NCBI GenBank assembly: GCA_964620265.1
Contig: CAZUGY010000002.1
Coordinates: 13,504-77,503 of the forward strand
Length of the DNA stretch: 64,000 nt
Source: an uncultured Alcaligenaceae bacterium
Lineage (GTDB): Bacteria > Pseudomonadota > Gammaproteobacteria > Burkholderiales > Casimicrobiaceae
Reading direction: 5' to 3'
Below the pieces are notes generated by a model. The model did not search any database, was not told the DNA's origin, and saw only the letters and a program-made list of their open reading frames with translations. This document shows, in pieces, positions 623 through 29,869 of the stretch. Positions within the stretch are counted from its first letter, which is position 1, and every line of letters starts with the position of its first letter. The position numbers were made by a program, and so were the translations under genes.

Positions 623-624
623 CG

Positions 625-3810: not shown

Positions 3811-3811
3811 C

Positions 3812-6351: not shown

Positions 6352-6368
6352 GCCGGACACCTCCCCGC

Positions 6369-6431
6369 GTCCCGAATGAGCAAGTTTACGTCACAGGGGA
6401 TCAACCACCAATGGAGGGTGGCGCCGACAAT
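6369..6431 (+). promoter_or_regulatory. AraC-type activated promoter P1: two GTC-N9-CAA direct repeats 21 bp apart, plus -10-like GACAAT
   Basis: GTCccgaatgagCAA at 6369-6383, GTCacaggggatCAA at 6390-6404, GACAAT at 6426-6431. The same geometry recurs at 11171-11233. Confidence 0.7.
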
Positions 6432-6479
6432 GGCATCCGTCCCCCAAGTCCCCCACGAACACCCGAGCGCTCCCGCCCG

Positions 6480-9276: not shown

Positions 9277-9284
9277 GGATGACC

Positions 9285-10277
9285 ATGGCACAAGCGATCC
9301 GCATGTACGCGACGGGCGGGCCCGAAGTGCTGCGCCTCGAGGAGGTCGCGGTGGGCGATCCCGGGCCCGGCCAGGCGCGCATCCGGCACGTCGCCGTCGG
9401 CCTCAATTTCGCCGACACCTACTTCCGCAGCGGCCTCTATCCGGTCCCGTTGCCGAACGGCATCGGTGTGGAAGCCGCGGGCATCGTCGAGAGCGTCGGC
9501 GACGGCGTGACCAACGTCGCGCCGGGCGATCGCGTGACGTACACGGGATTCGTCAACACGCTCGGCGCGTACAGCACCAAGCGCATCATCGCGGCGGCGC
9601 CGCTCATCAAGCTGCCCCCCGCCATCGCGTGCGAGACCGCCGCCGCGATGACCATGCGCGGGCTCACGTCGGCGTACCTGATGCGGCGCATCTGGCCGCT
9701 CCACGCGGGCGACACGATCCTGCTCCACGCGGCCGCGGGCGGCGTCGGCCTCATCGTCTCGCAGTGGGCGAAGCTGCTCGGGCTCGGCGTCATCGGCACG
9801 GTGTCGACGCCAGCCAAGGCCGATATCGCCCTCGCGCACGGATGCGACCACGTGATCCTCTACGGCCGGGAGGATGTCGCGGCGCGCGTGCGCGAGATCA
9901 CCGGCGGCGCCGGCGTGGCGGTGGTCTACGACAGCGTGGGCAAGGACACGTTCGCGGGCTCGCTCGCGTCGCTGCGCCGGCGCGGGCTGCTCGTGTGCGT
10001 CGGCACGGCGTCGGGTCCCATCCCGCCGATCGACGCGATGCAGCTGGCGCTGAAGGGATCGCTGTTCGTCACCCGCCCGGCGCTGGCCGACTACATCGCC
10101 GATCCGGCGGAGAAGGACGCGCTCGCCGCGGAGCTCTTCGACCACGTGGCGGCAGGACGCATCAGGATCGAGATCAACCAGCGCTACCGCCTCGAGGATG
10201 CGGCGCAGGCGCATCGCGACCTCGAGTCGCGCCGGACCATGGGCTCGTCCATCTTCGAGGTGACCTCACATGACTAA
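9285..10277 (+). CDS. NADPH:quinone oxidoreductase (Zn-independent MDR family, Qor-like)
   Basis: AIRMYATGGPEVL, GLNFADTYFRSGLY, HAAAGGVGL, VYDSVGKDTF and LESRRTMGS. A GAGGA RBS precedes the ATG at 9285. Confidence 0.92.
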   Translation: MAQAIRMYATGGPEVLRLEEVAVGDPGPGQARIRHVAVGLNFADTYFRSGLYPVPLPNGIGVEAAGIVESVGDGVTNVAPGDRVTYTGFVNTLGAYSTKRIIAAAPLIKLPPAIACETAAAMTMRGLTSAYLMRRIWPLHAGDTILLHAAAGGVGLIVSQWAKLLGLGVIGTVSTPAKADIALAHGCDHVILYGREDVAARVREITGGAGVAVVYDSVGKDTFAGSLASLRRRGLLVCVGTASGPIPPIDAMQLALKGSLFVTRPALADYIADPAEKDALAAELFDHVAAGRIRIEINQRYRLEDAAQAHRDLESRRTMGSSIFEVTSHD

Positions 10278-11166
10278 CGTCATCGACAACACGGCGCCCG
10301 CCGTGACCCCCACGCAGCTTCGCGTCGAGCCGCTGACCTGCGCCATCGGCGCGGAAGTCCTCGGCGTGAGTCTCGGCGACGCCGCGCGCGACGACGGGCT
10401 GTTCGCGCAGATTCGCGCCCTGCTCCTGCGGCACAAGGTGCTGTTCCTGCGCAACCAGGACATCACGCGCGCCGAGCACGTCGCGTTCGCGCGCAGGTTC
10501 GGCGACCTCGAGGATCACCCGGTGGCCGGCAGCGATCCCGACCACCCCGGCCTCGTGCGCATCTACAAGTCACCCGACCAGCCCAACGACCGCTACGAGA
10601 ACGCGTGGCATACCGACGCGACGTGGCGCGAGAAGCCGCCGTTCGGCTGCGTGCTGCGCTGTGTGGAGTGCCCGCCGGTGGGCGGCGACACCATGTGGGC
10701 GAACATGGCCCTTGCCTACGAGCGCCTGCCCGATCACGTGAAGGCACAGATCGCCGGCCTGCGCGCGCGCCACAGCATCGAGGCGACGTTCGGCGCCGCC
10801 ATGCCGATCGAGAGGCGCCTGGCGCTCAAGGCGCAGTTCCCGGACGCCGAGCACCCGGTCGTGCGCACGCACCCGGAAACCGGCGAGAAGGTCCTGTTCG
10901 TCAACGCGTTCACGACGCACTTCACGAACTTCCACACCCCGGAGCGCGTGCGCTACGGCCAGGACTACAGCCCCGGCGCCGCCCAGCTCCTCGAGTACCT
11001 CGTCAGCCAGGCGCTCATCCCCGAGTACCAGGTCCGCTGGCGCTGGGAGCCCAACGCGGTCGCCATCTGGGACAACCGCTGCACGCAGCATTACGCAGTC
11101 ATGGACTACCCGCCGTGTCACCGGAAGATGGAGCGCGCCGGGATCATGGGGGACACGCCTTTCTAG
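10270..11166 (+). CDS. TauD/TfdA-family Fe(II)/2-oxoglutarate dioxygenase
   Basis: WHTD (HxD), GGDTMW, EHPVVRTHPETG and IWDNRCTQHYA (distal His) followed by a conserved Arg. Confidence 0.93.
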   Translation: MTNVIDNTAPAVTPTQLRVEPLTCAIGAEVLGVSLGDAARDDGLFAQIRALLLRHKVLFLRNQDITRAEHVAFARRFGDLEDHPVAGSDPDHPGLVRIYKSPDQPNDRYENAWHTDATWREKPPFGCVLRCVECPPVGGDTMWANMALAYERLPDHVKAQIAGLRARHSIEATFGAAMPIERRLALKAQFPDAEHPVVRTHPETGEKVLFVNAFTTHFTNFHTPERVRYGQDYSPGAAQLLEYLVSQALIPEYQVRWRWEPNAVAIWDNRCTQHYAVMDYPPCHRKMERAGIMGDTPF

Positions 11167-11170
11167 CGCC

Positions 11171-11233
11171 GTCCCCGAAAGACAAGTTCGTGACACTCGC
11201 GATCAAGCATCGCGCGAGGCCGGCGCGGACAAT
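11171..11233 (+). promoter_or_regulatory. AraC-type activated promoter P2, same architecture as P1
   Basis: GTCcccgaaagaCAA at 11171-11185, GACactcgcgatCAA at 11192-11206 (21 bp period), and GACAAT at 11228-11233, 24 nt after the start of the second CAA, exactly as in P1. Confidence 0.68.
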
Positions 11234-11363
11234 GTGATTCACGGGTACGGCCGGCAACACGGCCGGCCCGCGAACAACGACGGCGCTTTCCGGGCGCCGC
11301 GGCAGCACCGAAGACCCGCACACAAGGGTAAATGAACTCCGAAGGGTTCAGGGAGGGCTACGC

Positions 11364-12404
11364 ATGTACCGTCACATCCTGGTTCCGATCGACGACTCGC
11401 CGCTCGCGATAGACACCGTGCAGCAGGCGGTCACGTTCGCGCGCTCGATCGGCGCGAAGGTGACATTCTTCCATGCCCAGCACGACTACGCCGCCTCGAG
11501 CCTCGGGGCGCTCGACCGGGTCATGTCGCCGGGCGCCTTCAACGAAGAGGTCGCCGGCGAGGCACGCGCGCTGCTCGCGAAGGCCGAGGTCGTCGCGCGC
11601 ACCGCGGGCGTCCCGCACGACGCGCTCGCGATGACCTGCGACCGTCCGCACGAGGCGATCCTCGGCGCCGCCGAGGCGCACGGCTGCGACCTCATCTTCA
11701 TGGCGTCGCACGGGCGCCGCGGCCTCACGGGCCTCGTGCTGGGCTCGCAGACGAGCAAGGTGCTGCAGGCGGCCTCCATCCCGGTGCTGGTCGCCACGGT
11801 GGAGAGCAACCGCGCGCCCTCGTCGGCCGACGCCGCACTCATGGTGGTGCGCGACGAGCACCGCTCGCTCGCGGCGGTCATCCACGGGCTCGAGTTCGTC
11901 GTCCGCGAGGCACGCGAGCGCGGCACGCCGGCGTCGGTGCCGCTCCTGCGCGCGATCGTGCGCTATGTCCATGACTTTCCGGAGACGCTGCATCACCCCA
12001 AGGAGGACACCTACCTCTTCCCGCTCCTGCGCGCGCGCACGACCGAGTACGACGCCACGCTCGACGCGCTCGCCCGGCAGCACGAGACGGGGACCGCGCT
12101 CACGCAGGCACTGTCGCGCGCGGTGGATGCCTACGCCGCGGATCCCGCGCAGGGCCTGCCCGTCCTCGCCGACGCGGCCGCGGCGTTCGCCACCGCGCAG
12201 ATGGAGCACATGCTCCTCGAGACGAAGGTGATCATCCCCGCGGCGCGCAGGCACCTCACCGCCGAGGACTGGACGCTCGTCGCGGACGCGTTCGGCCAGA
12301 ACGGCGATCCGCGCTTCTCCATCGATGCGGACGAGGAATACCGCCACCTCTTCGCACGCATCCTGAATCTCGCGCCGGCCGGCGTCGTCGGCAGCGCGCA
12401 ATGA
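11364..12404 (+). CDS. Universal stress protein fused to a hemerythrin-like (HHE) domain
   Basis: N-terminal USP (YRHILVPIDDS; DLIFMASHGRRGLTGLVLGSQTSKVL). C-terminal EHRSL, HHPKED, QHETG and EHMLLE metal-ligand pattern. Confidence 0.85.
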   Translation: MYRHILVPIDDSPLAIDTVQQAVTFARSIGAKVTFFHAQHDYAASSLGALDRVMSPGAFNEEVAGEARALLAKAEVVARTAGVPHDALAMTCDRPHEAILGAAEAHGCDLIFMASHGRRGLTGLVLGSQTSKVLQAASIPVLVATVESNRAPSSADAALMVVRDEHRSLAAVIHGLEFVVREARERGTPASVPLLRAIVRYVHDFPETLHHPKEDTYLFPLLRARTTEYDATLDALARQHETGTALTQALSRAVDAYAADPAQGLPVLADAAAAFATAQMEHMLLETKVIIPAARRHLTAEDWTLVADAFGQNGDPRFSIDADEEYRHLFARILNLAPAGVVGSAQ

Positions 12405-12430: not shown

Positions 12431-14275
12431 ATGCACCGTTCCTTCACGTTCCGCCGCACGGCGGCCGCCGCCGCACTTGCCGCGCTGTTCGCAGCGCCGG
12501 CGCTCGCCTTCGAGATCGACACCGGCAATCCCGACCTCGAGCTGCGCTGGGACAACACCTTCCGCTACAACCTGGGCGGTCGCGTGCAGGACCAGAACCC
12601 GGCGATCCTGGGCGCCGTGAACAACGACGACGGCGACCGCAACTTCGACAAGGGCTCGCTCGTCACCAACCGCCTCGACATCCTGTCCGAGTTCGACTTC
12701 GTGTGGCAGAAGAGCTACGGTGCGCGCGTGAGCGCGGCGCTGTGGTACGACGACGCCTACCGCAGCCTCGACAACACCTTCACGGCGACCGCCAACACGC
12801 TGGTCAACGGCCTGCCCGCGGCCGGCCAGCTGTCGCCGTACAGCAAGCGCTTCCTCGAGGGCCCGTCGGCCGAGTGGCTCGACGCCTTCGGCTTCGCGAA
12901 CTTCGAGGCACTCGGCATGCAATGGAACGTCAAGGCCGGCCAGCACACCGTGTACTGGGGCGACAGCCTCCTGCTCGGCGGCGCCGTCCATGGCGTGTCG
13001 TATGCGCAGAACTCGATCGACCTCATGAAAGGCTTCGGCACGCCGGGCGCGGAAGCGAAGGAGCTGTTCCGTCCCAAGGGCGGCATCACGCTGCAGACGC
13101 AGGCGACCAAGGACCTGTCGATCGCCGGCCAGTGGTTCTACAACTGGCAGGCCGTGCGCGCGCCCGAGTCGGGCAGCTACCTGACCGCGCACGACGCACT
13201 GCAGTTCGGCGGCGACTCGCTGGTCTTCGGCCCGAATCCGTTCGCCGCGGCGATCCCCGGCGCGCCGGCGTTCACCCGCCTGTGGAACCAGCAGGCGATC
13301 CCCGCGTCGCGCTACAGCGCGAGCCTGGGCGACTGGGGCATCTCCGCGCGCTGGAGCCCGGACTGGCTCGACGGCACGATGGGCTTCTATTTCCGCAACG
13401 CGACCGACATCCTGCCGCAGACGGTCGTCATCCCCGGCTTCGCGGCGCTGCCGGCGGCCACCTGCCAGGCCATCGGCGGCATCGTGGTGGCGCCCACCGC
13501 GTGCATCATCAATCCCAAGGCGACGAGCGTCGCCGACCTCACGCAGAGGGGCAAGGTCGGCGAATACCGGACGGCATACGGCGACAACATCCACATCTTC
13601 GGCGTGACGCTCTCCAAGAACATCGGCGGCGTCAGCGTGGGCGCGGAGCTCTCGTACCGCCAGAACATGCCGCTGCTGTCGGACCCGGTGCAGGCGCTGC
13701 CGACGCCGCTCGTCAATGCCGCCGCGGGCCAGATCTCGATCAACAACATTCCGGAGAACGGCACGCCCGGCGCGCTCGGCGACACCTTCCACGGCGTCCT
13801 CAACGGCTTCTGGATCATGTCCAAGACGCCGCTCTTCGACAGCGCGACGTTCGCGGCGGAAGGCACGTGGATGCGCTGGAGCCGGGTGACGCAGAACGAG
13901 GCGGTATTCAAGGGCCGCGACGGCTACACTGCGATCGACAAGCCGTCGCGCGACTTCTTCGGCATCGCCTTCAACGTCACGCCGACCTGGTTCCAGGTGT
14001 GGCCGGGCGTGGACCTGCTGGCGCCGATGTCGTATTCGCGCGGCGTGTCCGGCAATGCCGCCGTCTTCCTCGGGGGCAACGAAGCTGCCGGCAACTATGC
14101 CGTGGGCCTCGCCGCCGACATCTACTCGAAGTACCGCATCGACCTCAAGTACACCGGTTACTTCGGCGACTACTCGACCAATGAGGCGACGGGCGCGGCG
14201 ACCACGTTCAACGGCGTGTTCGGCTCGCTGTCCGACCGCGGCTGGGTCTCTCTCACGTTCAAGACCACGTTCTAA
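12431..14275 (+). CDS. DUF1302-family outer-membrane beta-barrel protein
   Basis: Signal peptide, WDNTFRYN, NNDDGDRNF, KAGQHTVYWGDSL and a terminal DRGWVSLTFKTTF beta-signal. Confidence 0.85.
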   Translation: MHRSFTFRRTAAAAALAALFAAPALAFEIDTGNPDLELRWDNTFRYNLGGRVQDQNPAILGAVNNDDGDRNFDKGSLVTNRLDILSEFDFVWQKSYGARVSAALWYDDAYRSLDNTFTATANTLVNGLPAAGQLSPYSKRFLEGPSAEWLDAFGFANFEALGMQWNVKAGQHTVYWGDSLLLGGAVHGVSYAQNSIDLMKGFGTPGAEAKELFRPKGGITLQTQATKDLSIAGQWFYNWQAVRAPESGSYLTAHDALQFGGDSLVFGPNPFAAAIPGAPAFTRLWNQQAIPASRYSASLGDWGISARWSPDWLDGTMGFYFRNATDILPQTVVIPGFAALPAATCQAIGGIVVAPTACIINPKATSVADLTQRGKVGEYRTAYGDNIHIFGVTLSKNIGGVSVGAELSYRQNMPLLSDPVQALPTPLVNAAAGQISINNIPENGTPGALGDTFHGVLNGFWIMSKTPLFDSATFAAEGTWMRWSRVTQNEAVFKGRDGYTAIDKPSRDFFGIAFNVTPTWFQVWPGVDLLAPMSYSRGVSGNAAVFLGGNEAAGNYAVGLAADIYSKYRIDLKYTGYFGDYSTNEATGAATTFNGVFGSLSDRGWVSLTFKTTF

Positions 14276-14287
14276 GGAGTACCGCAC

Positions 14288-15649
14288 ATGTTCGACAAGA
14301 CTCTCGTTGCCCTGGCCTTCGCGTCGCTCGCGGGCACCGCCTTCGCCGCGGTCTCCGCCGAGGAGGCGAAGCAGCTCGGCACCACGCTCACCGCCGTCGG
14401 TGCCGAGAAGGCCGGCAACAAGGAAGGCACCATTCCCGCCTACACCGGCGGGCTGAAGGAGATCCCCGCGTCCTACAAGCAGGGCAGCGGCATCCGTCCG
14501 TCGCCCTTCGAGGCGGAGAAGCCCCGGCTGGTCATCGATGCCAAGAACGCGGCGCAGCACGCGGACAAGCTGACGGAGGGCACCAAGGAGCTCCTGAAGC
14601 GCTACCCCGCCACGATGCGCCTCGACGTGTATCCCACGCAGCGCGTGGTCGCGTTGCCCGCGAAGGTGCTCGCCAACACCGCGAAGAACGCGGTCGGCAC
14701 CAAGAGCGTGAACGACGGCCTCGGCGTGGAGAACATGCTCCCGGGCATCCCGTTCCCCATTCCGAAGACGGGCAACGAGGCGATGTGGAACCACCTCGTG
14801 CGCTATCCGGGTGTGGCCTACGTGCAGAAGTACGAGAACTGGAACGTCGACTCGGCCGGCGTGCCGACGCTCGCCACCGCGGGCACGCTCACCAACGAGT
14901 TCCCGCTGTTCGATCCGAAGCGCCCCGAAGGCGCCGCGAAGGAGAGCGATCCCTTCTGGAAGATCAAGGTGCTCTACACGGGACCCGCGCGCCGGGCCGG
15001 CGAGGCGCTGATGGTCGTCGACTCGGTCAATCCGATCGTGCAGGGCCGGCGGGCGTGGCAATACCTCCCGGGACAGCGCCGCGTGAAGCTCGCGCCGGAC
15101 CTGTCCTACGACACGCCGAACGCAGGCACGGCGGGCACCTCGACCTATTCGGACGCGTTCGTGTTCAACGGCGCGATGGACCGCTTCGACTGGAAGCTCG
15201 TGGGCAAGAAGGAGATGTACGTCCCGTACAACGGCTACAAGCTCATGTACGCGAAGGACATCAAGCCCGCGCTCACGCCGAATCACGTCAATCCCGAGTT
15301 CATGCGCTGGGAGCTGCATCGCGTCTGGGTCGTGGAAGCGACGCTCAAGCCGGGCAAGCGCGACCTGTACAGCAAGCGCGTGTATTACCTCGACGAGGAC
15401 AGCTGGGCCGCGCTCGCCGCCGACCAGTACGACAACAAGGGGCAGCTCTACCGCGCCACGATCGTCAACCCGACGTGGAGCTACGACGCGAGTGCCGTGA
15501 ACATCGACAACTACACGTTCTACGACTTTTCCTCGGGCTCGTACGCCGTCGTCGGCGCCTCCGGAAGGTCCGATGGCATCCGCTACGTCGATCCGCTGCC
15601 CGAGCTGCAGTGGGCGTCGGAGTCGCTGGCGGGGTCGGGGATCCGTTGA
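14288..15649 (+). CDS. DUF1329-family periplasmic protein (LolA-like lipid-shuttle fold)
   Basis: Signal peptide, LTAVGAEKAGN, IPAYTGG, PFPIPKTGNEAMWNH, AWQYLPGQRRVK, RWELHRVWVVEATLKPGKR and YLDEDSW. Confidence 0.88.
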   Translation: MFDKTLVALAFASLAGTAFAAVSAEEAKQLGTTLTAVGAEKAGNKEGTIPAYTGGLKEIPASYKQGSGIRPSPFEAEKPRLVIDAKNAAQHADKLTEGTKELLKRYPATMRLDVYPTQRVVALPAKVLANTAKNAVGTKSVNDGLGVENMLPGIPFPIPKTGNEAMWNHLVRYPGVAYVQKYENWNVDSAGVPTLATAGTLTNEFPLFDPKRPEGAAKESDPFWKIKVLYTGPARRAGEALMVVDSVNPIVQGRRAWQYLPGQRRVKLAPDLSYDTPNAGTAGTSTYSDAFVFNGAMDRFDWKLVGKKEMYVPYNGYKLMYAKDIKPALTPNHVNPEFMRWELHRVWVVEATLKPGKRDLYSKRVYYLDEDSWAALAADQYDNKGQLYRATIVNPTWSYDASAVNIDNYTFYDFSSGSYAVVGASGRSDGIRYVDPLPELQWASESLAGSGIR

Positions 15650-16686
15650 AGCTTCTGCGCACCTTCGTCCTCTGCGCCGGCGCGGTCGCGCTGCCCGCCG
15701 GGGCAGCCGGCTTCGTCGACGTGCTGGCGCAGCCGGCCGTGATGTCGCCGCTGGCGAGCCGGTCGCTCATGCAGGCGGTGGCACGCGCAGGGACGAAGCT
15801 CGTCGCCGTCGGCCAGCGCGGGCACGTGCTCGTGTCGGCCGACGACGGCAAGACCTGGAAGCAGTCGCCGGTGCCCGTGAGCTCCGATCTCACGGCCGTG
15901 CATTTCGTCGACGACCGCAGGGGATGGGCCGTCGGCCACGACGGCGTGATCCTCGCTTCCGGGGACGGCGGTGCATCGTGGACGCTGCAGCTCGACGGCG
16001 CGCGCGCGAACCAGGCGCTGGTCGACGACCTCGCGCGCAAGCCCGAGGCGCAGGCGCTGCTCGCGGAAGCGAACCGCAATCTCGAGCAGGGTCCGGACAA
16101 GCCCTTCCTCGACGTGTGGTTCGCGGACGAGAAGGTCGGCTTCGCCGTCGGCGCCTACAACCTCGCATTCCGCACGGAAGACGGCGGGAAGACCTGGCAG
16201 CCGTGGTTCGATCGCATCGACAATCCCAAGCTGCTGAACCTGTATGCGATCCGCCCTGCGGCCGGCGAGCTGTTCATCGTCGGCGAGGCGGGCCTGGTGC
16301 TGAAGCTCGATGCGCCGGCGCAGCGCTTCCGCGCGGTCGAGCTGCCGTACCAGGGCACGCTCCTCGGCATCACCGGCAGCGCGGACGCGGTGATCGTGTT
16401 CGGCCTGCGCGGCCAGGCGTGGCGCAGCGAGGACGCCGGGAAGACATGGAGCAAGGTCGACGCGGGATTGCCGGCGACGATCGTCGCCGGAACGCCGGTG
16501 GCCGGCCAGGGATTCGCGCTCGCCGACGCGAGCGGACGCGTCAGCGTCTCGCGCGACGGCGGCCGCAACTTCCGGGCGGCGTCCCTTCCGCCCTCGATGA
16601 TGCTTGCCGGCATGGCCGACGCCGGCGAGGGCCGCCTCGCCCTCGCGGGCGCCCGCGGCGTGACGGTCGTCGCGCTGCCGCGCTGA
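15646..16686 (+). CDS. YCF48/BNR-repeat beta-propeller protein
   Basis: TTG start overlaps the upstream stop. Repeated Asp-box motifs (SADDGKTW, SGDGGASW, TEDGGKTW, SEDAGKTW, SRDGGRNF). Confidence 0.85.
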   Translation: MKLLRTFVLCAGAVALPAGAAGFVDVLAQPAVMSPLASRSLMQAVARAGTKLVAVGQRGHVLVSADDGKTWKQSPVPVSSDLTAVHFVDDRRGWAVGHDGVILASGDGGASWTLQLDGARANQALVDDLARKPEAQALLAEANRNLEQGPDKPFLDVWFADEKVGFAVGAYNLAFRTEDGGKTWQPWFDRIDNPKLLNLYAIRPAAGELFIVGEAGLVLKLDAPAQRFRAVELPYQGTLLGITGSADAVIVFGLRGQAWRSEDAGKTWSKVDAGLPATIVAGTPVAGQGFALADASGRVSVSRDGGRNFRAASLPPSMMLAGMADAGEGRLALAGARGVTVVALPR

Positions 16687-16702
16687 CCACCGCGGAACTG
16701 CC

Positions 16703-19180
16703 ATGATGACGAGCGACGACAGCGCGGGTGAGATGCCCGTCGTGCGGGCGCTGGGCGACTTCGACCGCAACTCCGGCAACGCCCTCGAGCGGCTCGTGTT
16801 CAACCACCGCCGCACCATGCTCGCGGTGTGCGCGGCGATCACCGTCGTGCTCGCCTTCTTCGCCGTCACGAAGCTCGTGCTCAATGCGAGCTTCGAGAAG
16901 ATGATTCCGCAGGGCCAGGCGTACATCCAGAACTACCTCACCTACCAGAAGGACCTGCGCGGCCTCGGCAACGTGCTGCGCGTCGTCGTGGAGAACACGA
17001 GTGGCGACATCTACGATCCCGCCTACCTCGAGACGCTGAAGGAGATCAACGACGAGCTCGTCGTGACGCCCGGCGTGGATCGCGCGTGGGTCAAGTCGCT
17101 GTGGATGCCTGCGGTGCGCTGGACCGAGGTCACCGAGGAGGGCTTCCGCGGCGGGCCGGTGATGCCGCCGAGCTTCGACGGCTCGCCCGCATCGGTGGAG
17201 CAGCTGAAGCAGAACGTCGCGCGTGCCGGGATCCTGGGCAGCCTCGTCGCCGACGACCGCAAGTCGTCCATGATCTTCGTGCCGCTGCTCGACCGCGAGC
17301 CCGGCACCGGCAAGCGCATCGATTATCACGGGCTGTCGCGCGTGCTGGAGGACAAGATCCGCGGCAAGTACGAGCTGGCCCACGCGGTGGACGCCGCGGC
17401 CGCGAAGGCGCCCGCGCACGTCAAGGTCCACGTGATCGGATTCGCCAAGCTGATCGGCGAGCTGATCGACGGGCTGGTCAAGGTCATGGCCTTCTTCGCC
17501 GTGGCCGCGGCGATCGCGACCGCCATCATCTACGCCTACACGCGCTGCGTGCGCAGCACGGCACTGGTGATCGCCTGCTCGCTCGTCGCCGTCATCTGGC
17601 AGCTCGGCCTGGTCGCGCTGCTGGGCTTCGAGCTCGACCCCTATTCGATCCTGGTGCCCTTCCTCGTATTCGCGATCGGCGTGTCGCACGGCGCGCAGAA
17701 GATGAACGGCATCATGCAGGACATCGGGCGCGGCACGCACAAGCTGGTCGCGGCGCGCTACACCTTCCGCCGCCTCTTCCTCGCCGGCCTCACCGCGCTG
17801 CTGGCCGACGCCGTCGGCTTCGGGGTGCTGATGGTGATCGACATCCCGGTCATCCGCGAGCTCGCCATCACCGCGAGTATCGGCGTCGCCGTGCTGATCT
17901 TCACCAACCTGCTGCTCCTGCCCGTGCTGCTGTCGTATACCGGCGTGAGCGCGTCCGCCGCGCAGCGCAGCCTCGCCGAAGAGCGCGCGGAAACGCGCGG
18001 ACGGGGCCTGGGCAAGCTGTGGCTGCTGCTCGACCGCTTCACCACGCGGCGCTATGCCACGGCGGCGGTCGCCGTCGCGGCGGTGCTGGCCGTCGGCGGC
18101 TTCGCGGTCGCGACGAAGCTCGCGATCGGCGACCTCGACCCCGGCGCGCCCGAGCTTCGCCGCGACTCGCGCTACAACCGCGACACGGCCTACGTCACGA
18201 GCCACTACGCGCTGTCGTCCGACCAGTTCGCCGTCATCGTGAAGACCGAGCGCGACGGCTGCCTCCACTACGAAACGCTGGTCGAAGCGGACCGCCTGGG
18301 CTGGACGCTGCGCCAGGTCCCCGGCGTGCAGGCGACCGTCTCGCTCGCCGATTCGGTGCGCCAGATCACCGCCGGCTCGTTCGAAGGCAGCCCCAAGTGG
18401 CTCACGATCAACCGCAACCAGGACGTCCTCAACTTCGCGGGACAGCAGACCTCGGTCAACAACCCCGACCTCTTCAATCTCGACTGCTCCGTGATGCCGG
18501 TGATCGCCTACCTGGCCGATCACAAGGCGGACACGCTCGATCGCGTGGTCGAGGCCGTGCGCGCCTTCGCCGCCGAGCACGACACCGAGGACCGCAAGTT
18601 CCTGCTCGCCGCCGGCACCGCCGGGATCGAGGCCGCCACCAACATCGTCGTGCGCGACGCCAACCGGACGATGCTCCTGTACGTCTACGCCGCGGTGATC
18701 GTGCTCTGCTTCATCACCTTCCGGAGCTGGCGCGCGGTGATCGTCGCCGTCGTGCCGCTCGCGATCACATCGATCCTCTGCGAGGCGCTGATGGTCGCGC
18801 TCGGCATGGGCGTCAAGGTGGCCACCCTCCCCGTCATCGCGCTCGGCGTCGGCATCGGCGTCGACTACGCGCTCTACCTGCTGTCGGTGCAGCTCGCGCA
18901 GCAACGCCGCGGCGTGCCGCTCACGCAGGCGTACCGCAACGCCGTGCAGTTCACCGGCAAGGTGGTGGCGCTCGTCGGCGTGACGCTCGCCGCGGGCGTG
19001 ATCACGTGGGCGTTCTCGCCCATCAAGTTCCAGGCCGACATGGGCATCCTGCTCACGTTCATGTTCCTGTGGAACATGATCGGCGCCCTGGTCCTCATTC
19101 CGGCGCTGTCGTACTTCCTGCTGCCGACGAGCGTCGTCGCAGGCCGGATCCCGGCCCGCCGCGCGATGGCGGCGGCCTGA
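16703..19180 (+). CDS. MMPL/HpnN-type RND transporter associated with DUF1302/DUF1329
   Basis: 825 aa with two membrane halves (AIGVSHGAQKMNG and GIGVDYALYLL), KFQADMGILLTFMF, and large periplasmic loops. Confidence 0.88.
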   Translation: MMTSDDSAGEMPVVRALGDFDRNSGNALERLVFNHRRTMLAVCAAITVVLAFFAVTKLVLNASFEKMIPQGQAYIQNYLTYQKDLRGLGNVLRVVVENTSGDIYDPAYLETLKEINDELVVTPGVDRAWVKSLWMPAVRWTEVTEEGFRGGPVMPPSFDGSPASVEQLKQNVARAGILGSLVADDRKSSMIFVPLLDREPGTGKRIDYHGLSRVLEDKIRGKYELAHAVDAAAAKAPAHVKVHVIGFAKLIGELIDGLVKVMAFFAVAAAIATAIIYAYTRCVRSTALVIACSLVAVIWQLGLVALLGFELDPYSILVPFLVFAIGVSHGAQKMNGIMQDIGRGTHKLVAARYTFRRLFLAGLTALLADAVGFGVLMVIDIPVIRELAITASIGVAVLIFTNLLLLPVLLSYTGVSASAAQRSLAEERAETRGRGLGKLWLLLDRFTTRRYATAAVAVAAVLAVGGFAVATKLAIGDLDPGAPELRRDSRYNRDTAYVTSHYALSSDQFAVIVKTERDGCLHYETLVEADRLGWTLRQVPGVQATVSLADSVRQITAGSFEGSPKWLTINRNQDVLNFAGQQTSVNNPDLFNLDCSVMPVIAYLADHKADTLDRVVEAVRAFAAEHDTEDRKFLLAAGTAGIEAATNIVVRDANRTMLLYVYAAVIVLCFITFRSWRAVIVAVVPLAITSILCEALMVALGMGVKVATLPVIALGVGIGVDYALYLLSVQLAQQRRGVPLTQAYRNAVQFTGKVVALVGVTLAAGVITWAFSPIKFQADMGILLTFMFLWNMIGALVLIPALSYFLLPTSVVAGRIPARRAMAAA

Positions 19181-19220
19181 CCCGGCCTGCATTCCCCGTC
19201 CAACGAACGAGATCCCCGTC

Positions 19221-20870
19221 ATGAATCCCCTCGCCATCCAGCGCACTCCGGCGGCGCACGACACGCCGCTGATCCTCCGCCACATCCTCGAGCGCGGCGT
19301 CTCACAGGCCCCGCAGCAGGAGATCGTGTACGCCGACCAGGCGCGCCACACGTACACCACGCTCGCGGAGCGGATCGCGCGGCTGGCCTCCGGCCTCGCC
19401 GCGCTCGGCGTGCGCCCCGGCTCGACGGTGGGCGTGATGGACTGGGACAGCCACCGCTACCTCGAGTGCTTCTTCGCGATCCCGATGATGGGTGCGGTGC
19501 TGCACACGATCAACGTGCGCATCTCGCCGGACCAGATCCTCTACACCATCAATCACGCCGAAGACGACGTGATCCTGGTCAACGCCGAGTTCCTGCCCAT
19601 CCTGGAGGCGATCCAGCACAAGCTCCGGCGCGGCGTGAAGCTCGTGCTGCTCTGTGATCTGCCGGCCGCGCCGGCGTCGAGCCTCGCGTTCGCGCACGGC
19701 TACGAGGAGATGCTGGCATCCGCCCCGGCGTCGTACGCCTTTCCCGATCTTCCCGACGACACCCGCGCCACCACGTTCTACACGACGGGCACGACGGGCC
19801 TGCCGAAGGGCGTCTACTACAGCCATCGCCAGCTCGTGCTGCACACGCTGGCCATCGCGGAGGCCTTCGCGAATGCGCCGCACGCCTCGTTCACCGCGCG
19901 CGACGTGTACATGCCCGTCACGCCGATGTTCCACGTGCACGCGTGGGGGCTGCCCTATCTCGCGACCCTGCTCGGCGTGAAGCAGGTCTACCCGGGACGC
20001 TACGTGCCGGACAGGCTGCTCGCGCTCGTCACCCGCGAAGGCGTCACGTTCTCGCATTGCGTGCCGACGATCCTGTCGATGCTGCTCGGCAGCCCGGCGG
20101 TATCGGACGCGAACCTTGCCGGGTGGAAGATGATCATCGGCGGCTCGGCGCTCCCGCTGCCGCTCGCGCGCAAGGCCCTGGACTGCGGCATCGACGTGAT
20201 CGCCGGCTACGGCATGTCCGAGACCTGCCCGATCCTGACGCTCGCGCACCTGCGTCCGCACATGAGCGAATGGGACGTCGAGCGCAAGCTGCCGGTCCTC
20301 GTGCGCGCCGGGCGTCCGATTCCCTTCGTCGAGCTGCGCATCGTCGACGCGGACATGAACGACGTCCCGCACGACGGTGTGGCGCAGGGCGAGGTCGTGG
20401 TCCGCTCGCCCTGGCTCACGCAGGGCTACCTGCACGATCCCGAGCGCTCCGCCGAGCTCTGGCACGGCGGCTGGCTGCACACGGGCGACGTGGGCATCAT
20501 CGACACCGAGGGCTATCTCAAGATCGTCGACCGCATCAAGGACGTCGTGAAGACCGGCGGCGAGTGGGTCTCGTCGCTCGACATCGAGGACCTGGTGCTG
20601 CGCGTGCCCGGCATCGTCGAGGCCGCCGTCATCGGCGTGCCCGACGACAAGTGGGGCGAGCGCCCGGTGGCCTTCGTCGTGCGCAAGGGCGATGCCGGTG
20701 CGACCGAGGACGCCATCCGCCGTCACGTCCAGGACTTCGCGGATCGCGGCGCGATCTCGAAGTACGCCGTGCCGGACCGCGTGTACTTCGTCGAGGCGAT
20801 TCCGAAGACCAGCGTCGGCAAGCTCGACAAGAAGGTGATCCGCGCGCAGCTCGCGGCCCCCGCGAAGTGA
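19221..20870 (+). CDS. Medium/long-chain acyl-CoA ligase (AlkK/DmdB-like)
   Basis: YTTGTTGLPKG AMP-binding motif, PMFHVHAWG, GYGMSET, WLHTGD, DRIKDVVKTGGEW and PKTSVGKLDKK. Confidence 0.93.
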   Translation: MNPLAIQRTPAAHDTPLILRHILERGVSQAPQQEIVYADQARHTYTTLAERIARLASGLAALGVRPGSTVGVMDWDSHRYLECFFAIPMMGAVLHTINVRISPDQILYTINHAEDDVILVNAEFLPILEAIQHKLRRGVKLVLLCDLPAAPASSLAFAHGYEEMLASAPASYAFPDLPDDTRATTFYTTGTTGLPKGVYYSHRQLVLHTLAIAEAFANAPHASFTARDVYMPVTPMFHVHAWGLPYLATLLGVKQVYPGRYVPDRLLALVTREGVTFSHCVPTILSMLLGSPAVSDANLAGWKMIIGGSALPLPLARKALDCGIDVIAGYGMSETCPILTLAHLRPHMSEWDVERKLPVLVRAGRPIPFVELRIVDADMNDVPHDGVAQGEVVVRSPWLTQGYLHDPERSAELWHGGWLHTGDVGIIDTEGYLKIVDRIKDVVKTGGEWVSSLDIEDLVLRVPGIVEAAVIGVPDDKWGERPVAFVVRKGDAGATEDAIRRHVQDFADRGAISKYAVPDRVYFVEAIPKTSVGKLDKKVIRAQLAAPAK

Positions 20871-21415
20871 CCGAGCCCACCGTCCTGATCGTGCCCGGCC
20901 TGCGCGATCATGTGCCGGAGCATTGGCAGGCGCTGCTCGAGGCCCGGCTCCCCAACGCGCGCTGCGTGCCGCGGATGGAGCACGACAAGCTCTCGCGCGC
21001 GGCGTGGGTCGCGGCGCTCGACCAATCGCTCGCCGCGATCGACGGACCGGTGATCCTCGTCGCGCACAGCGCGGGCGTGCTCATCACCGTGCACTGGGCG
21101 CAGGAACACCGCCGTCCGATCCGCGGCGCGCTGCTCGCGACGCCGCCTGACCTGTCGCGCCCGCTGCCGGCCGGCTATCCGGCGCAGAGCGTGCTGCTCG
21201 CCAATGGGTGGCTGCCCACGCCCCGCGCGCGCCTGCCGTTTCCGAGCATCGTCGCGGCGAGCACGAACGATCCGCTCGCCGAGCCCGTCCACGTGGCCGC
21301 ACTCGCCAGCTCGTGGGGCAGCCGGCTCGTCGACGTCGGCGCGGTCGGACATCTCAATCCCGCCGCAGGCTACGGCCCATGGCCGCGCGCGGAAGCGCTG
21401 ATCGCCGAGCTCTGA
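20867..21415 (+). CDS. RBBP9/YdeN-family alpha/beta hydrolase
   Basis: GTG overlaps the ligase stop. LIVPGL, HWQ, VAHSAG (nucleophile Ser), ASTNDP and GHLN. Confidence 0.88.
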   Translation: MTEPTVLIVPGLRDHVPEHWQALLEARLPNARCVPRMEHDKLSRAAWVAALDQSLAAIDGPVILVAHSAGVLITVHWAQEHRRPIRGALLATPPDLSRPLPAGYPAQSVLLANGWLPTPRARLPFPSIVAASTNDPLAEPVHVAALASSWGSRLVDVGAVGHLNPAAGYGPWPRAEALIAEL

Positions 21416-21468: not shown

Positions 21469-21610
21469 CTCGGATGCTCGCGCAAGGATTGACGCCTTCC
21501 GCGGACACCGCGCTGCACCCCAGCGACAACCCGTGCCTGGCGCCGCGTCGGGACGCAGAAGCGGCGCCGCTGTAAACTCCGCTGCTATCCATCTGCTGGA
21601 GCACGTCCGC

Positions 21611-22162
21611 ATGCCTTTCCGGCCGCGCATTTTCGCCGCGATCCTGGCCCTTCTCGTACCGAGCGTCGCAAGCGCTTCCTTCCTTTCCGGTGACGCCCTC
21701 GACACCATGGCCGACTGGATCGCCATCGTGGTGCTCGTGGTCGTGCCAGCCGGCGTGATCGTGGTGTTCTGGATGATCCACGTCCTGCCCGAGAAGATCG
21801 CCGAGAAGCGGCACCATCCGCAGAAGGACGCGATCAACACGCTCTGCCTGCTCTCGCTCGTGTTCGGCGGGCTCCTGTGGCCCCTCGCCTGGATCTGGGC
21901 CTACACCAAGCCCGTGGCCTACCGGTCCGCCTACGGCACCGACAAGCACGACGACTGGTTCGCCGACATGGAGGCCCGCGCTCGCGCCGGCGACCTGAGC
22001 GACATCGAGCTCGGCGTGCTGCGCGACGAGCTCGACCATCGGGCCGGCGGCGGCCGCCTGCCGCCCGCGCTGGCGCGCTTGCGCCGCGAGCTCGACGAGC
22101 TGCCCGTGCGCCATGCCGCGCCGCCGGACGCCGCGCCGCCCGCCGCTGCCGGGGAGGCGTAG
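21611..22162 (+). CDS. DUF3302 (YiaW/YibI-like) small membrane protein
   Basis: IHVLPEKIAEKRHHPQKDAINTLCLLSLVFGGLLWPLAWIWAY is the family signature. It lies directly upstream of a HlyD gene. Confidence 0.82.
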   Translation: MPFRPRIFAAILALLVPSVASASFLSGDALDTMADWIAIVVLVVVPAGVIVVFWMIHVLPEKIAEKRHHPQKDAINTLCLLSLVFGGLLWPLAWIWAYTKPVAYRSAYGTDKHDDWFADMEARARAGDLSDIELGVLRDELDHRAGGGRLPPALARLRRELDELPVRHAAPPDAAPPAAAGEA

Positions 22163-22165
22163 CGC

Positions 22166-23392
22166 ATGGAAGCCCTCCTGCTCGGCATCTATTCGTTCTT
22201 CGTCTGGCTGATCTTCATCAAGTTCAAGTGGCTGCCGTGGAACATCACGTCGCAGGTCATCGTGGTGATCATCCCGGTGGTGGCGCTCACGGCGATGATC
22301 CTAACCCTCAATGTCGTGGCGCCCACCTCGGCCAACCTGCGCGTGTACAAGTACACGATCCCCATCGTGTCGCAGGTGCGGGGCCGCGTGCTCGAGGTAC
22401 CGGTGGAGGAAGGCAATCGCCTCGTCCGCAAGGGCGACGTCCTCTTCAAGGTGGATCCCACGCCCTACCAGCTCGACGTGGCGAGCCTCGAGGCACAGCT
22501 GGCGCTCGCCGAAGGCGGCCAGCGCGAAACGCAGGAGTCGCTGGGCGGGGCGGTGGCCAAGGTCGCGGAGTCGCGCGCCGCGATCGCGCAGGCCACCGCA
22601 CGGATATCGGAAGTGGATGCCAAGCTCGCGCTGGCGCGCAAGCGTGTCGACCAGTATCGCGAGCTCGTGACCTCGGGGGCGGGCAACCGCTTCGACCTCG
22701 AGGAGGCCGAGGCGAGCCTCGCCGAGCTTTCCGGCCAGCGCGAGGCCGCGCGCAGCGCCGAGGCACAGGCGCGCGCCGGCGAGGCGCAGGCGCAGGCGTC
22801 GGTGGCGCAGGTGCGGCAGAAGCTCGGCACCAAGGTCGACGGCGGCACCTACGCGCAGGTCGCGCAGATCCGGGCCCAGCTCGAGAACGCGCGCTGGCTG
22901 CTCGAGCAGACCACCACCGTGTCGCCCTGCGATTGCCACGTGATCAACCTGCAGCTGCGCGCCGGCGCCTTCGTGGCCGGGCTGCCGCTCAATCCGGTGA
23001 TGACGCTGGTGGAGGCCGACGGCCAGGTCGTCGCCTTCTATGCGCAGAACGAGCTCACGCGGGTGGCCGCCGGCGACGAGGCGGAGTTCGCGCTGCAGAC
23101 CTATCCCGGGCGCATCGTGAAGGGCAAGGTGGACTCGGTCGTGTGGGCCATCGGCCAGGGCTCGCTCCCGCCGAGCGGCACGATCCCGCTGTCGACACTC
23201 GCCACGCAGCCGCCGGGCCAGTTCGCGGTGAAGTTCGACCTCGCCGATCGCGACCGCGAGCTCTTCCTCGCCGCGGGCGCCGTGGGCCAGGCGGCCATCT
23301 ACACGCAATACGGCGCGATGCTGCACGTGGTGCGCAAGGTCATCCTGCGCGTGGGCTCGTACCTCAACTACCTCATCCTCAAGCTGCACTAG
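22166..23392 (+). CDS. HlyD-family membrane fusion protein (YiaV/YibH-like)
   Basis: Two N-terminal hydrophobic segments, IVSQVRGRVLEVPV, VRKGDVLFKVDPTPYQ, a coiled coil, and YPGRIVKGKVDSV. Confidence 0.9.
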   Translation: MEALLLGIYSFFVWLIFIKFKWLPWNITSQVIVVIIPVVALTAMILTLNVVAPTSANLRVYKYTIPIVSQVRGRVLEVPVEEGNRLVRKGDVLFKVDPTPYQLDVASLEAQLALAEGGQRETQESLGGAVAKVAESRAAIAQATARISEVDAKLALARKRVDQYRELVTSGAGNRFDLEEAEASLAELSGQREAARSAEAQARAGEAQAQASVAQVRQKLGTKVDGGTYAQVAQIRAQLENARWLLEQTTTVSPCDCHVINLQLRAGAFVAGLPLNPVMTLVEADGQVVAFYAQNELTRVAAGDEAEFALQTYPGRIVKGKVDSVVWAIGQGSLPPSGTIPLSTLATQPPGQFAVKFDLADRDRELFLAAGAVGQAAIYTQYGAMLHVVRKVILRVGSYLNYLILKLH

Positions 23393-23393
23393 G

Positions 23394-24866
23394 GTGACGA
23401 TCCGACGCATGGGCGCACACGCGAACGAACCCCGCGGCCGGCGCGGCATCGCCGCCTCGCTTGCCGCGGCGTGCGTGCTCGGCGGCTGCGCGCTGGCGCC
23501 GCCGCCTCCGGTGGAGGAAACGCGCACCACCGCCCTGCCGCAGGTCGTGGTGCCCGCGCACTACACGGCGCAGCCCGCGCCGACCGGCGCCGGCGCCGTC
23601 GTCGACGGCTGGATCGACACGTTCAACGATCCCGCGCTGACGACGCTCGTGCGCGAGGCGATCCTGTACAACAGCGACCTGCGGATCGCGCAGGCGCGCG
23701 TCGAGCAGGCGGCGGCGTATCTCAAGGTGGCGGGCGCCCTCCTCTATCCGCAGGTGAACCTCATGGGCCGCGGCGGCGGCCAGATGTCCGACAGCAGCGG
23801 CCTTTCCGGCGTGGGCATCTTCGCCAACTGGGAGCTCGACCTGTGGGGTCGCGTGCGCTCGGGCCAGGCCTTCGCGCGGGCGCAGTACGAGGCCACGCAG
23901 CTCGATGCGGAGTACGCGCGGCAATCGATCGCCGCCCTCGTGGCCAAGGGCTGGTTCCTCGCCATCGAGGCGCGCCTGCAGCGCGCGCAGGCCACGGCGA
24001 TGCGCGAGTCGGCCACGAAGCTCGTGGACCTCGCGCAGGACCGCCTGCGCGTGGGTCGCGGCGACGAATACGACGTGGCGCTCGCCCGCGCCAACGTCGC
24101 CACGCTGCGCGATACCGAGCGCAACCTCGAGGCGGCCTACCAGCAGGCGGTGCGCAGCCTCGAGACGCTCGTGGGACGCTATCCCGCCGCGGCGCTCGTG
24201 GCGCCGGCGCAGCTCACCGCCTGGCCGGGCGACGTGCCCGTGGGACTGCCCTCCGAGCTCCTCGAACGGCGCCCCGACGTCATCGCGGCGGAGCGGCGCG
24301 TGGCGGGTGCGTTCTACCGCACCGAGGAAGCCAAGGCCGCGCGGCTGCCGCGCATCACGCTCACGGCGAGCGTGACCTCGATCTCGAGCGAGCTCTTCGT
24401 GCTGAAGGCCACCGACAATCCCGTGTGGAGCCTGGGTGCCGGGTTGCTGCAGCCGCTCTTCCTGGGTGGCCAGCTGCAGGGCCAGGTCGAGCTGCGCACG
24501 GCCGAACAGCTGCAGACCGTGGCCGAATACGGCCGCACCGGTGCCCGCGCCTTCGCCGAGGTCGAGGATTCGCTGTCCAACGGCTTCGCGCTCGCCGACC
24601 GCGAGGCGCTGCTGGCCACGGCGGTGCGCGAGAACGCGCGCGCCTACGACTTGGCCGGCGTGCGCTACCGCGTAGGTGCCGGCGACCTGCGGGCCGTGCA
24701 GCAGCAACAGCTCGCGCTCTACGCCGCGCAGGTGCAGTTGCTGCGCGTGCAGGCCGAGCGCCTCGTGCAGCGGGTCAACCTCCACCTGGCCCTGGGCGGC
24801 AGCTTCGAATCGCCGCCGGTGCGGGCCGCCGCGGTGGCGCCCGCCCCGAGCGGAACGACCCAGTAG
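23394..24866 (+). CDS. Outer-membrane efflux factor lipoprotein (NodT/TolC family)
   Basis: Lipobox LGGC, NWELDLWGRVR, LLERRPDVIAAE and LHLALGGSF. Start may be the ATG at 23409. Confidence 0.92.
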   Translation: MTIRRMGAHANEPRGRRGIAASLAAACVLGGCALAPPPPVEETRTTALPQVVVPAHYTAQPAPTGAGAVVDGWIDTFNDPALTTLVREAILYNSDLRIAQARVEQAAAYLKVAGALLYPQVNLMGRGGGQMSDSSGLSGVGIFANWELDLWGRVRSGQAFARAQYEATQLDAEYARQSIAALVAKGWFLAIEARLQRAQATAMRESATKLVDLAQDRLRVGRGDEYDVALARANVATLRDTERNLEAAYQQAVRSLETLVGRYPAAALVAPAQLTAWPGDVPVGLPSELLERRPDVIAAERRVAGAFYRTEEAKAARLPRITLTASVTSISSELFVLKATDNPVWSLGAGLLQPLFLGGQLQGQVELRTAEQLQTVAEYGRTGARAFAEVEDSLSNGFALADREALLATAVRENARAYDLAGVRYRVGAGDLRAVQQQQLALYAAQVQLLRVQAERLVQRVNLHLALGGSFESPPVRAAAVAPAPSGTTQ

Positions 24867-24879
24867 GAAGCGCGCCGCC

Positions 24880-24911
24880 GCGCCTGCCCGGGTCTCGGGC
24901 CCGGCAGGCGC
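24880..24911 (+). terminator. GC-rich hairpin after the OMF gene (no U-tract)
   Basis: GCGCCTGCC (24880-24888) and GGCAGGCGC (24903-24911) form a perfect 9-bp stem. Confidence 0.4.
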
Positions 24912-24938
24912 TCCCGCACGGCACGCGCCGGGGGCGGT

Positions 24939-24967
24939 TCGACAAACCGCAGCGGCTGCGGTACAAA
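24939..24967 (+). promoter_or_regulatory. Sigma70-like promoter with a perfect palindromic operator in the spacer
   Basis: TCGACA (24939-24944), 17 nt spacer, TACAAA (24962-24967). ACCGCAGC-g-GCTGCGGT spans 24946-24962. Confidence 0.55.
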
Positions 24968-25041
24968 GCCGAAGCCCGTTTCCCCCGCTGCCTGCCGACA
25001 GCGTTCCCGCCTTGCCCGCCGCCCGCTTCGCCCCAGCTGCC

Positions 25042-26583: not shown

Positions 26584-26595
26584 GGAGCGCCCGGC

Positions 26596-29865: not shown

Positions 29866-29869
29866 TCCC

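Follow-up and report, generated by a model that had tools for sequence, protein, structure and literature searches.

The 64-kb window analysed here, a stretch of DNA from contig CAZUGY010000002.1 of an uncultured Alcaligenaceae bacterium, carries six genes on the plus strand at positions 12431-21415. They encode a DUF1302 outer-membrane barrel, a LolA-like DUF1329 protein, an exported Ycf48-like propeller, an RND-superfamily protein, an acyl-CoA ligase and a PF06821 hydrolase. Judged by family composition, sizes and order as described in PMC6394551, the first four genes are a tetrapartite envelope cassette of the published AmeABCD type. A predicted AraC-type operator, present in two copies, joins the operon of this cassette to an upstream operon for a transporter of the major facilitator superfamily (MFS), a CMD family protein, a beta-keto acid cleavage enzyme (BKACE), a Qor-like oxidoreductase and a TauD-like dioxygenase. 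According to tblastn matches, the whole supercluster recurs in several bacterial orders. We lean, with a confidence that stays a little short of even, towards a reading in which the cassette would serve the outer-envelope part of the route by which the regulon's amphiphilic or hydrophobic substrate is taken up.

Organization of the cassette operon

All six genes lie where the preliminary description of this DNA had placed them. Its account of a barrel, a LolA-like protein, an exported propeller and an MMPL-type RND in a tight operon ending in a ligase and a hydrolase is borne out by the family matches and by intergenic gaps of -4 to 40 nt (Table 1). The operon probably begins one gene before DUF1302, with a gene fusing Usp and hemerythrin domains. 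Usp-hemerythrin, DUF1302, DUF1329, Ycf48-like propeller, HAE3-type RND, acyl-CoA ligase and PF06821 hydrolase would then probably be transcribed together, with successive gaps of 26, 12, -4, 16, 40 and -4 nt. The Usp-hemerythrin fusion also adjoins the cassette, usually directly before DUF1302, at several other loci (L037, L038, L045, L081, L030, L032, L064 and L110 in our numbering), and a Usp gene with the cassette has been reported in Azoarcus BH72. As an identical gene order is seen in dozens of genomes, the arrangement is far beyond what chance would produce. The AmeABCD assignment rests on an exported DUF1302 barrel, a LolA-like DUF1329 protein, an exported propeller and an adjoining RND of the HAE3 branch, which are contiguous and on one strand.

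A predicted operator shared with a catabolic operon

The preliminary description had also proposed that catabolic enzymes are attached to the cassette through shared promoters, and this proposal stands. In the whole window, only two positions carry the composite site GTC-N9-CAA-N6-G(T/A)C-N9-CAA with GACAAT behind it: 6369, ahead of the MFS operon, and 11171, ahead of the Usp-cassette operon. Furthermore, the gap between the TauD-like and Usp genes is only 20-40 nt long in L038, L045, L081 and L032, where the twelve genes probably form one continuous operon. As the operator precedes both operons here and the same genes appear to be merged in relatives, co-regulation of the cassette with the catabolic enzymes is supported at the sequence level.

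The strict operator pattern yielded no sites in relatives. Scanning them with a 17-mer consensus (GTCCCGAAAAGAcAAGT, up to 3 mismatches) returned 8 sites, as compared to 1.8 in shuffled sequences. The MFS gene is preceded by such a site in L038, L045, L080 and L081, as are the Usp gene in L037, DUF1302 in Lysobacter L047 and the hydrolase gene in Aeromonas L075. The AraC-family regulator gene is divergent from the MFS operon in the window; this divergent pair is kept in L038, L045, L080 and L081, and it lies beside the cassette in Pseudomonas and Aeromonas. The MFS gene is listed in Table 1 with its longest-ORF (open reading frame) start, 6411, and its true start is probably located further downstream.

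When the TauD-like enzyme is aligned to E. coli TauD, His70, His99, Asp101, His255, Arg266 and Arg270 are retained, and Tyr73 and Asn95 are replaced. In the E. coli enzyme, we take these residues to be the Fe and 2-oxoglutarate ligands, the anion-binding pair (His70 and Arg270) and the amine binders (Tyr73 and Asn95). Identification as a true taurine dioxygenase was rejected since the amine-binding residues are not conserved, so that the alignment makes a taurine enzyme unlikely. A close relative in the Protein Data Bank (PDB), 5vn6 (E 1e-170), is designated a taurine dioxygenase and is likewise devoid of TauD's amine-binding residues.

Recurrence of the supercluster in relatives

Proteins of the window were compared by tblastn with 14 loci from the same genus and with 79 genome loci taken with 10-kb flanks. 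Loci were grouped according to RND identity (at least 66%, 46 distinct loci; below 66%, 33 loci), and a partner was counted when found within 10 kb. BKACE (62-94% identity) was detected at 21 of the 46 loci with the more similar RND, the TauD-like enzyme (68-87% identity) at 19, the PF06821 hydrolase at 23, the CoA ligase (at least 35% identity) at 24, the MFS transporter at 15 and the AraC regulator at 10, while each of these six partners was absent from all 33 loci with the more distant RND. At least one of BKACE, TauD-like enzyme, hydrolase and ligase accompanies the cassette at 29 of the 46 loci, again with no case among the 33. BKACE and the TauD-like enzyme are much more conserved across orders than the adjoining transport proteins.

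Carriers of the supercluster comprise Casimicrobiaceae-like metagenome-assembled genomes, Rugamonas, Variovorax, Macromonas, Ramlibacter, Lysobacter, several Pseudomonas species and Aeromonas. Some of them are cultured, namely Pseudomonas reinekei MT1, Metapseudomonas resinovorans DSM 21078, Aeromonas rivipollensis DSM 24593, Lysobacter niastensis DSM 18481, Rugamonas fusca FT3S and Variovorax spp. Within the genus, orthologues of the RND and of BKACE are found together in 8 genomes, one without the other in 2 and neither in 15 (Fisher p 7e-5), and about half of the genomes have no cassette at all. In an even, class-wide sample of 400 genomes, no BKACE orthologue was detected except in the genome the window comes from. 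Thus, as far as the sampled genomes tell, the supercluster is rare and patchy.

In relatives, additional genes join the supercluster: an FadE-like acyl-CoA dehydrogenase, a ScoAB CoA-transferase, a DsbA-like protein and a methyl-accepting chemotaxis protein with a PAS domain. The last of these lies beside the supercluster in Aeromonas L075 and L076 and in Rugamonas L043, which fits with taxis toward the substrate. A transporter of the YeiH family (PF03601) is found beside the supercluster at 13 loci.

Our literature search found no paper on the AraC/BKACE/TauD-like/PF06821 supercluster. The cassette itself, its CoA-ligase neighbour and the idea of transport or import are already in the literature; what appears to be new here is the predicted linkage of AraC, MFS, BKACE, TauD-like enzyme, ligase and hydrolase with the cassette.

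Two observations concern the surroundings and the sampling of the cassette. Next after the operon (21533-24866) comes a DUF3302-HlyD-outer membrane factor (OMF) module that has no evident inner-membrane pump, and it adjoins the cassette in Variovorax L056 and L057 (51-67% identity). Besides, L039 (JBNQGB010000001.1, 'Gordonia sp. IEGM753'), a 2.86-Mb contig labelled as actinobacterial, carries the DUF1302/DUF1329/BNR/RND cassette with identities almost equal to those of Pseudomonas L040 and L042, and this record is probably mislabelled or contaminated.

The RND protein and its asymmetric motifs

The RND passes the Pfam cut-off for MMPL; its best NCBIfam match is the HAE3 subfamily (TIGR00921, E 1e-41), which is under that model's cut-off. 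A match to the sterol-sensing domain is weak (E 0.003, below cut-off). The hydropathy profile agrees with a small HpnN/MmpL-like build of 12 transmembrane (TM) segments and a pair of periplasmic loops, each of about 190 aa. TM4 carries FAIGVSHGAQ (residues 323-332) and TM10 carries GIGVDYALY (residues 717-725), so that the preliminary description was right in reporting GVSHG in the first half (326-330) and GIGVDY in the second (717-722).

Both motifs, [GA]xSH[GA] in TM4 and GxDY[AG] in TM10, are invariant in all 78 cassette-linked RNDs from the fetched loci, which show 36-100% identity. By this conservation, the Ser-His/Asp-Tyr asymmetry is a hallmark of the lineage and not a local oddity, and the pair is possibly a His-Asp relay. 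HpnN shows the reverse layout, with GVDF in TM4, GVAF in TM10 and its single Asp in the other half. The asymmetry had been listed among the observations behind the import reading, where we find it a weak argument: as it is lineage-wide and as HpnN, an exporter, also has a single Asp, it says nothing on direction. In G009:C7 and G011:C8 (L028, L030) and in L081, the coding sequence of the orthologous RND is broken into two or three frames, which may reflect assembly indel errors or real pseudogenes.

Barrel, carrier and propeller

The DUF1302 protein (614 aa) has a signal peptide ending in ALA|FE and a C-terminus (...KTTF) with a final Phe. Its AlphaFold2 model is a large beta-barrel (pLDDT 91.7), for which Foldseek returned only generic matches to porins of 16-18 strands, Occ and AlgE (TM-score about 0.5), with no FadL among the 50 matches listed. 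As modelled, the barrel is neither a TolC-type channel nor FadL-like. In a sequence search of the PDB, DUF1302 had no relative and DUF1329 just a marginal one.

The DUF1329 protein (453 aa) also has a signal peptide, and its AlphaFold2 model, built from a 73-sequence alignment, has a pLDDT of 92.7. Its 240-290 C-terminal residues resemble the LolA superfamily, with Foldseek TMt values of 0.83 for LolA3 (9tp6), 0.77 for 3bk5 and 0.71 for 4z48 ('DUF1329 family'). The genome harbours one DUF1302 and one DUF1329 gene. Elsewhere, a second DUF1329 gene occurs within 10 kb of the first, at about 2.5 kb in L073 and at 7-8 kb in L053, L088, L096 and L109, accompanied by a second DUF1302 in L088 and L096.

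The propeller gene has a TTG start which overlaps the DUF1329 stop, and its product has a signal peptide and matches Ycf48/HCF136 structures of the PDB (E 1e-12 to 1e-14). DUF1302, DUF1329, the propeller and the hydrolase are not represented by any NCBIfam model.

At about 69% G+C, the window holds many long out-of-frame ORFs. Two of them, 15573-16706 and 8295-9137, overlap genuine genes, which is typical at this composition. The former is the longest ORF in the region, and it was rejected as the propeller gene because it is Arg-rich, out of frame and without any family match. The wrong-frame translation of 8295-9276 gives tblastn matches of 37-81% identity in relatives, which calls for caution with ORF-based predictions here.

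Ligase and hydrolase

The ligase, of the medium/long-chain PRK06187 type, has all adenylation motifs intact (YTTGTTGLPKG, GYGMSE, TGD and GKLDKK) and no signal peptide. A ligase gene directly follows the RND gene at 10 loci and belongs to either of two subfamilies, the PRK06187 type and the PRK07008/DmdB type. The presence of two subfamilies at the same place suggests that a ligase at the post-RND position is under selection. The hydrolase lacks a signal peptide and has HSAG as its nucleophile motif. The beginning of its gene shares 4 nt with the end of the ligase gene, and at 8 loci of the Pseudomonas group the hydrolase is encoded directly before DUF1302.

Table 1. Features of the cassette operon and of the adjoining catabolic operon in the 64-kb window.
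Feature	Position	Strand	Evidence
AraC-family regulator (Arabinose_bd + HTH_18; QhpR/GliR/CypR-like)	5326-6360	-	Pfam and NCBIfam; divergent from MFS operon
Predicted operator/promoter P1	6369-6440	+	GTCCCGAATGAGCAAGTTTACGTCAC...GATCAA...GACAAT, before MFS operon
MFS transporter, anion:cation symporter-like	6411-7805	+	MFS_1 E 5e-50; best NCBIfam TIGR00893 (D-galactonate/ACS-family) below cut-off
CMD (carboxymuconolactone decarboxylase / AhpD-like) family protein	7805-8221	+	PF02627 E 5e-9
Beta-keto acid cleavage enzyme (BKACE)	8218-9276	+	PF05853 E 8e-63
NADPH:quinone-reductase-like MDR oxidoreductase (Qor-like)	9273-10277	+	NF008024 344.7 bits vs cut-off 348
TauD/AtsK-family Fe(II)/2-oxoglutarate dioxygenase	10270-11166	+	PF02668 E 4e-67
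Predicted operator/promoter P2, second copy of P1 operator	11171-11240	+	GTCCCCGAAAGACAAGTTCGTGACAC...GATCAA...GACAAT, before Usp-cassette operon
Usp-hemerythrin fusion	11364-12404	+	Usp E 9.5e-27, Hemerythrin E 2e-13; 26 nt upstream of DUF1302
DUF1302 outer-membrane beta-barrel (AmeA-like)	12431-14275	+	PF06980 E 1e-106
DUF1329 periplasmic LolA-like carrier (AmeB-like)	14288-15649	+	PF07044 E 6.5e-132 plus LolA_like
Ycf48-like BNR beta-propeller, exported (AmeC-like, COG4447)	15646-16686	+	PSII_BNR E 6.9e-24
HAE3/MMPL-type RND (AmeD-like)	16703-19180	+	PF03176 MMPL above cut-off
Medium/long-chain acyl-CoA ligase (PRK06187 type)	19221-20870	+	NF004837 642 bits vs cut-off 476
PF06821 (YdeN/RBBP9-type) serine hydrolase, cytoplasmic	20867-21415	+	PF06821 E 1e-43; PDB 3bdv E 4e-25

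Direction of transport and substrate

The preliminary description had proposed an RND-based import chain. The four-protein cassette, its coupling to a ligase and a hydrolase and its tie to catabolic genes all stand, but the direction of transport is not established and cannot be read from sequence. Should the cassette work inward, the porin-like barrel with its docked LolA-like protein would extract the compound from the outer membrane, or pass it through, and DUF1329 would ferry it over the periplasm to an RND-propeller complex. The proton gradient would drive hand-over by the RND into the inner membrane, with TM10 Asp721-Tyr722 and TM4 Ser328-His329 as the putative proton relay. The hydrolase would free fatty acids, which the ligase would trap as CoA esters, and the anionic head-group product would enter across the inner membrane via the MFS symporter. 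We favour uptake because the company of the cassette is strictly catabolic, because the defects observed in P. putida are specific to esters, and because plain fatty acids are provided for by FadL genes at other places in the genome. In P. putida, randomly barcoded transposon sequencing (RB-TnSeq) indicated a requirement for the cassette on Tween 20 and butyl stearate and none on laurate or myristate, a phenotype which fits uptake better.

As for the substrate, the enzymes encoded here point to a beta-substituted acid. Oxidative cleavage by the TauD-like enzyme would give a beta-keto acid and sulfite or sulfate, and BKACE would turn the beta-keto acid into acetoacetate and an acyl-CoA. YeiH is needed for Salmonella growth under sulfite stress, and some orthologues are annotated as putative sulfate exporters. 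Based on the link with YeiH, we tentatively propose an organosulfonate or a sulfate-ester lipid or ester as the substrate, a suggestion more doubtful than inward transport itself.

Several facts weigh against uptake, or against the pathway just outlined. To our knowledge, characterised bacterial RNDs export. The enzymes of the regulon are without any known substrate, and the window copy has neither the YeiH-type exporter nor the acyl-CoA dehydrogenase found in relatives. In addition, co-occurrence of the BKACE subfamily with the cassette at the whole-genome level is weakly specific (35/43 vs 13/32 genomes), which is why we relied on adjacency. In the only deletion study of a homologous cassette, cells lacking ameABCD tolerated limonene above 5 mM less well, even when acetate was present, and accumulated slightly more Nile Red, both of which the authors read as export (PMC6394551), and an importer leaves this tolerance defect unexplained. 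The cassette belongs to phenol regulons in Betaproteobacteria, and a comparative study of these regulons read it as a solvent-stress device. Cassette phenotypes in Shewanella and P. stutzeri are pleiotropic and have been read as export of envelope components.

Part of this evidence fits the published AmeABCD model, a substrate-induced efflux or tolerance valve, which we consider possible though less convincing than uptake. In this model, excess amphiphile in the periplasm or in the outer leaflet of the inner membrane would be captured by the RND and passed through propeller, LolA-like carrier and barrel to the outside, keeping the membrane load low while the MFS transporter and the enzymes consume the compound. 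The outward polarity of characterised bacterial RNDs agrees with such a valve, and so do the limonene sensitivity and Nile Red accumulation of the ameABCD mutant and the solvent-protection reading of the phenol regulons. Moreover, the dedicated MFS importer of the same regulon already provides inner-membrane uptake. However, the Nile Red difference was seen only in CCCP (carbonyl cyanide m-chlorophenylhydrazone)-treated cells, and mutant and wild type had identical efflux kinetics (PMC6394551). The failure of P. putida mutants on bulky esters and not on laurate or myristate also argues against a valve, and if a single operator controlled both import and export of the same compound, the result would be a futile cycle. 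Finally, three classical HAE1/HlyD-OMF efflux sets already flank the locus.

The pleiotropic phenotypes could alternatively indicate that the cassette places a lipid, a surfactant or an outer-membrane component at the cell surface, growth defects on esters and hydrocarbons being indirect. Price et al. read the cassette in this sense, as 'export of a cell wall component'. The pleiotropy appears as cofitness in Shewanella and P. stutzeri, DUF1302 and DUF1329 occur in Delftia nanopods (outer-membrane vesicle structures), and the LolA-like and HpnN/MmpL-like parts resemble anterograde lipid traffic. We nevertheless judge such a role improbable here, as the cassette shares a catabolic AraC operator with BKACE, the TauD-like enzyme, ligase and hydrolase, no lipid-synthesis gene being among them, and as its absence from about half of the genus is a misfit for a core envelope function. 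The RND and its ligase neighbour raise another interpretation. An acyl-CoA ligase beside an MMPL-type RND is a signature of mycobacterial lipid export loci, and the ligase could activate a fatty acid for a lipid product exported by the RND. For the same reason, CoA trapping, as the preliminary description had interpreted the ligase neighbour, is not a unique reading of this pairing. We nonetheless find mycobacterial-type biosynthesis and export very hard to credit: the regulon has no polyketide synthase (PKS), non-ribosomal peptide synthetase, acyltransferase or glycosyltransferase, the partners are catabolic (BKACE, CoA-transferase, acyl-CoA dehydrogenase and anion symporter), and the ligase matches the PRK06187 CoA-ligase family above cut-off and not a fatty acyl-AMP ligase model.

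The question reaches beyond this locus. Cassettes of the AmeABCD type are very common in Proteobacteria and beyond, and they are found in many catabolic islands for hydrocarbons, aromatics and lipids, while their direction and substrates are unsettled and published phenotypes of homologues point both ways. If true, an inward-working bacterial RND would change the view of how hydrophobic nutrients cross the Gram-negative envelope. The present lineage is practical for testing, as the cassette is single-copy, has its own AraC regulator and a recognisable operator, is linked to few enzymes and occurs, within the supercluster, in cultured strains.

Comparison with known systems

The closest described system is AmeABCD of Castellaniella defragrans 65Phen (PMC6394551), which has the same families in the same order (DUF1302/DUF1329/COG4447/COG1033-HAE3) and similar sizes (605 vs 614 aa for DUF1302 and 451 vs 453 aa for DUF1329). 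Like the window cassette, it is embedded in a catabolic island for hydrophobic substrates, with which it is induced. Its partners are monoterpene enzymes, whereas those found here are AraC, MFS, BKACE and the TauD-like enzyme, with a ligase and a hydrolase in the cassette operon itself.

The four families also form cofitness modules in RB-TnSeq data, for example Sama_1588-1591 in Shewanella amazonensis and PP_0765/PP_0766 with PP_2018/PP_2019 in P. putida; the medium-chain CoA ligase PP_0763 is a common neighbour of the cassette in Pseudomonas, and a role in substrate transport has been proposed earlier from AlphaFold co-folding of the cassette (bioRxiv 072470; 10.1101/2020.07.04.188060; PMC10866462). 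The module has been seen in Kangiella and Pseudomonas as well. In P. putida KT2440, it is split over two loci thought to be controlled by a LuxR-type regulator. By contrast, the window has a single operon with an AraC-type operator, joined to the BKACE, TauD-like and PF06821 genes.

Among better known RNDs, HpnN (PDB 5khn) and MmpL3-type proteins share the small build with its pair of periplasmic loops (about 190 aa) and likewise have no operon-encoded partner for TolC docking, and a GxxD[YF] motif in a TM helix is common to HpnN and the window RND. Identity with HpnN was rejected, as scores reach only 64 bits vs 752 for TIGR03480 and 18.6 bits vs 1100 for NF052374, and as TM4 has GVSH and not GVDF; sequence similarity is very weak (E 6e-8) and limited to the second half. 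Moreover, HpnN acts without a dedicated barrel, carrier or propeller. A tripartite HAE1 pump of the AcrAB-TolC type was rejected too, the operon having no ACR_tran, HlyD-family adaptor or OEP/TolC-type channel. These HAE1/HlyD-OMF families are located in separate flanking operons (11-5329 and 21533-31375). Membership in BstA was also rejected, as was a mycobacterial FadD-Pks-MmpL locus: an RND and a ligase are present, but the ligase is of the CoA type, and the annotated genes, which span 1-51.6 kb of the window, include no PKS or acyltransferase.

The analogy with FadL/FadD uptake drawn in the preliminary description lies in passage through the outer membrane followed by CoA trapping, for which an intact acyl-CoA ligase is available here. 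It does not extend to the family level, as DUF1302 matches PF06980 only, Foldseek matches are generic porins, and two true FadL genes (PF03349) are located on other contigs of the genome. Unlike the window cassette, FadL needs neither a periplasmic carrier nor an RND.

A more distant parallel is provided by the eukaryotic transfer of sterols from NPC2 to NPC1. There, a soluble lipid carrier hands its cargo to a membrane protein of the RND superfamily, by which it is inserted into the membrane at the proton-rich face. There is no detectable orthology, and the comparison is one of analogy, showing that inward-working RND-superfamily proteins exist. By this analogy, the cassette might speculatively be a proton-driven retrograde route from the outer to the inner membrane, feeding an undescribed pathway for a sulfonated or sulfated lipid or ester with a TauD-type enzyme, BKACE and YeiH-type export of the sulfite or sulfate.

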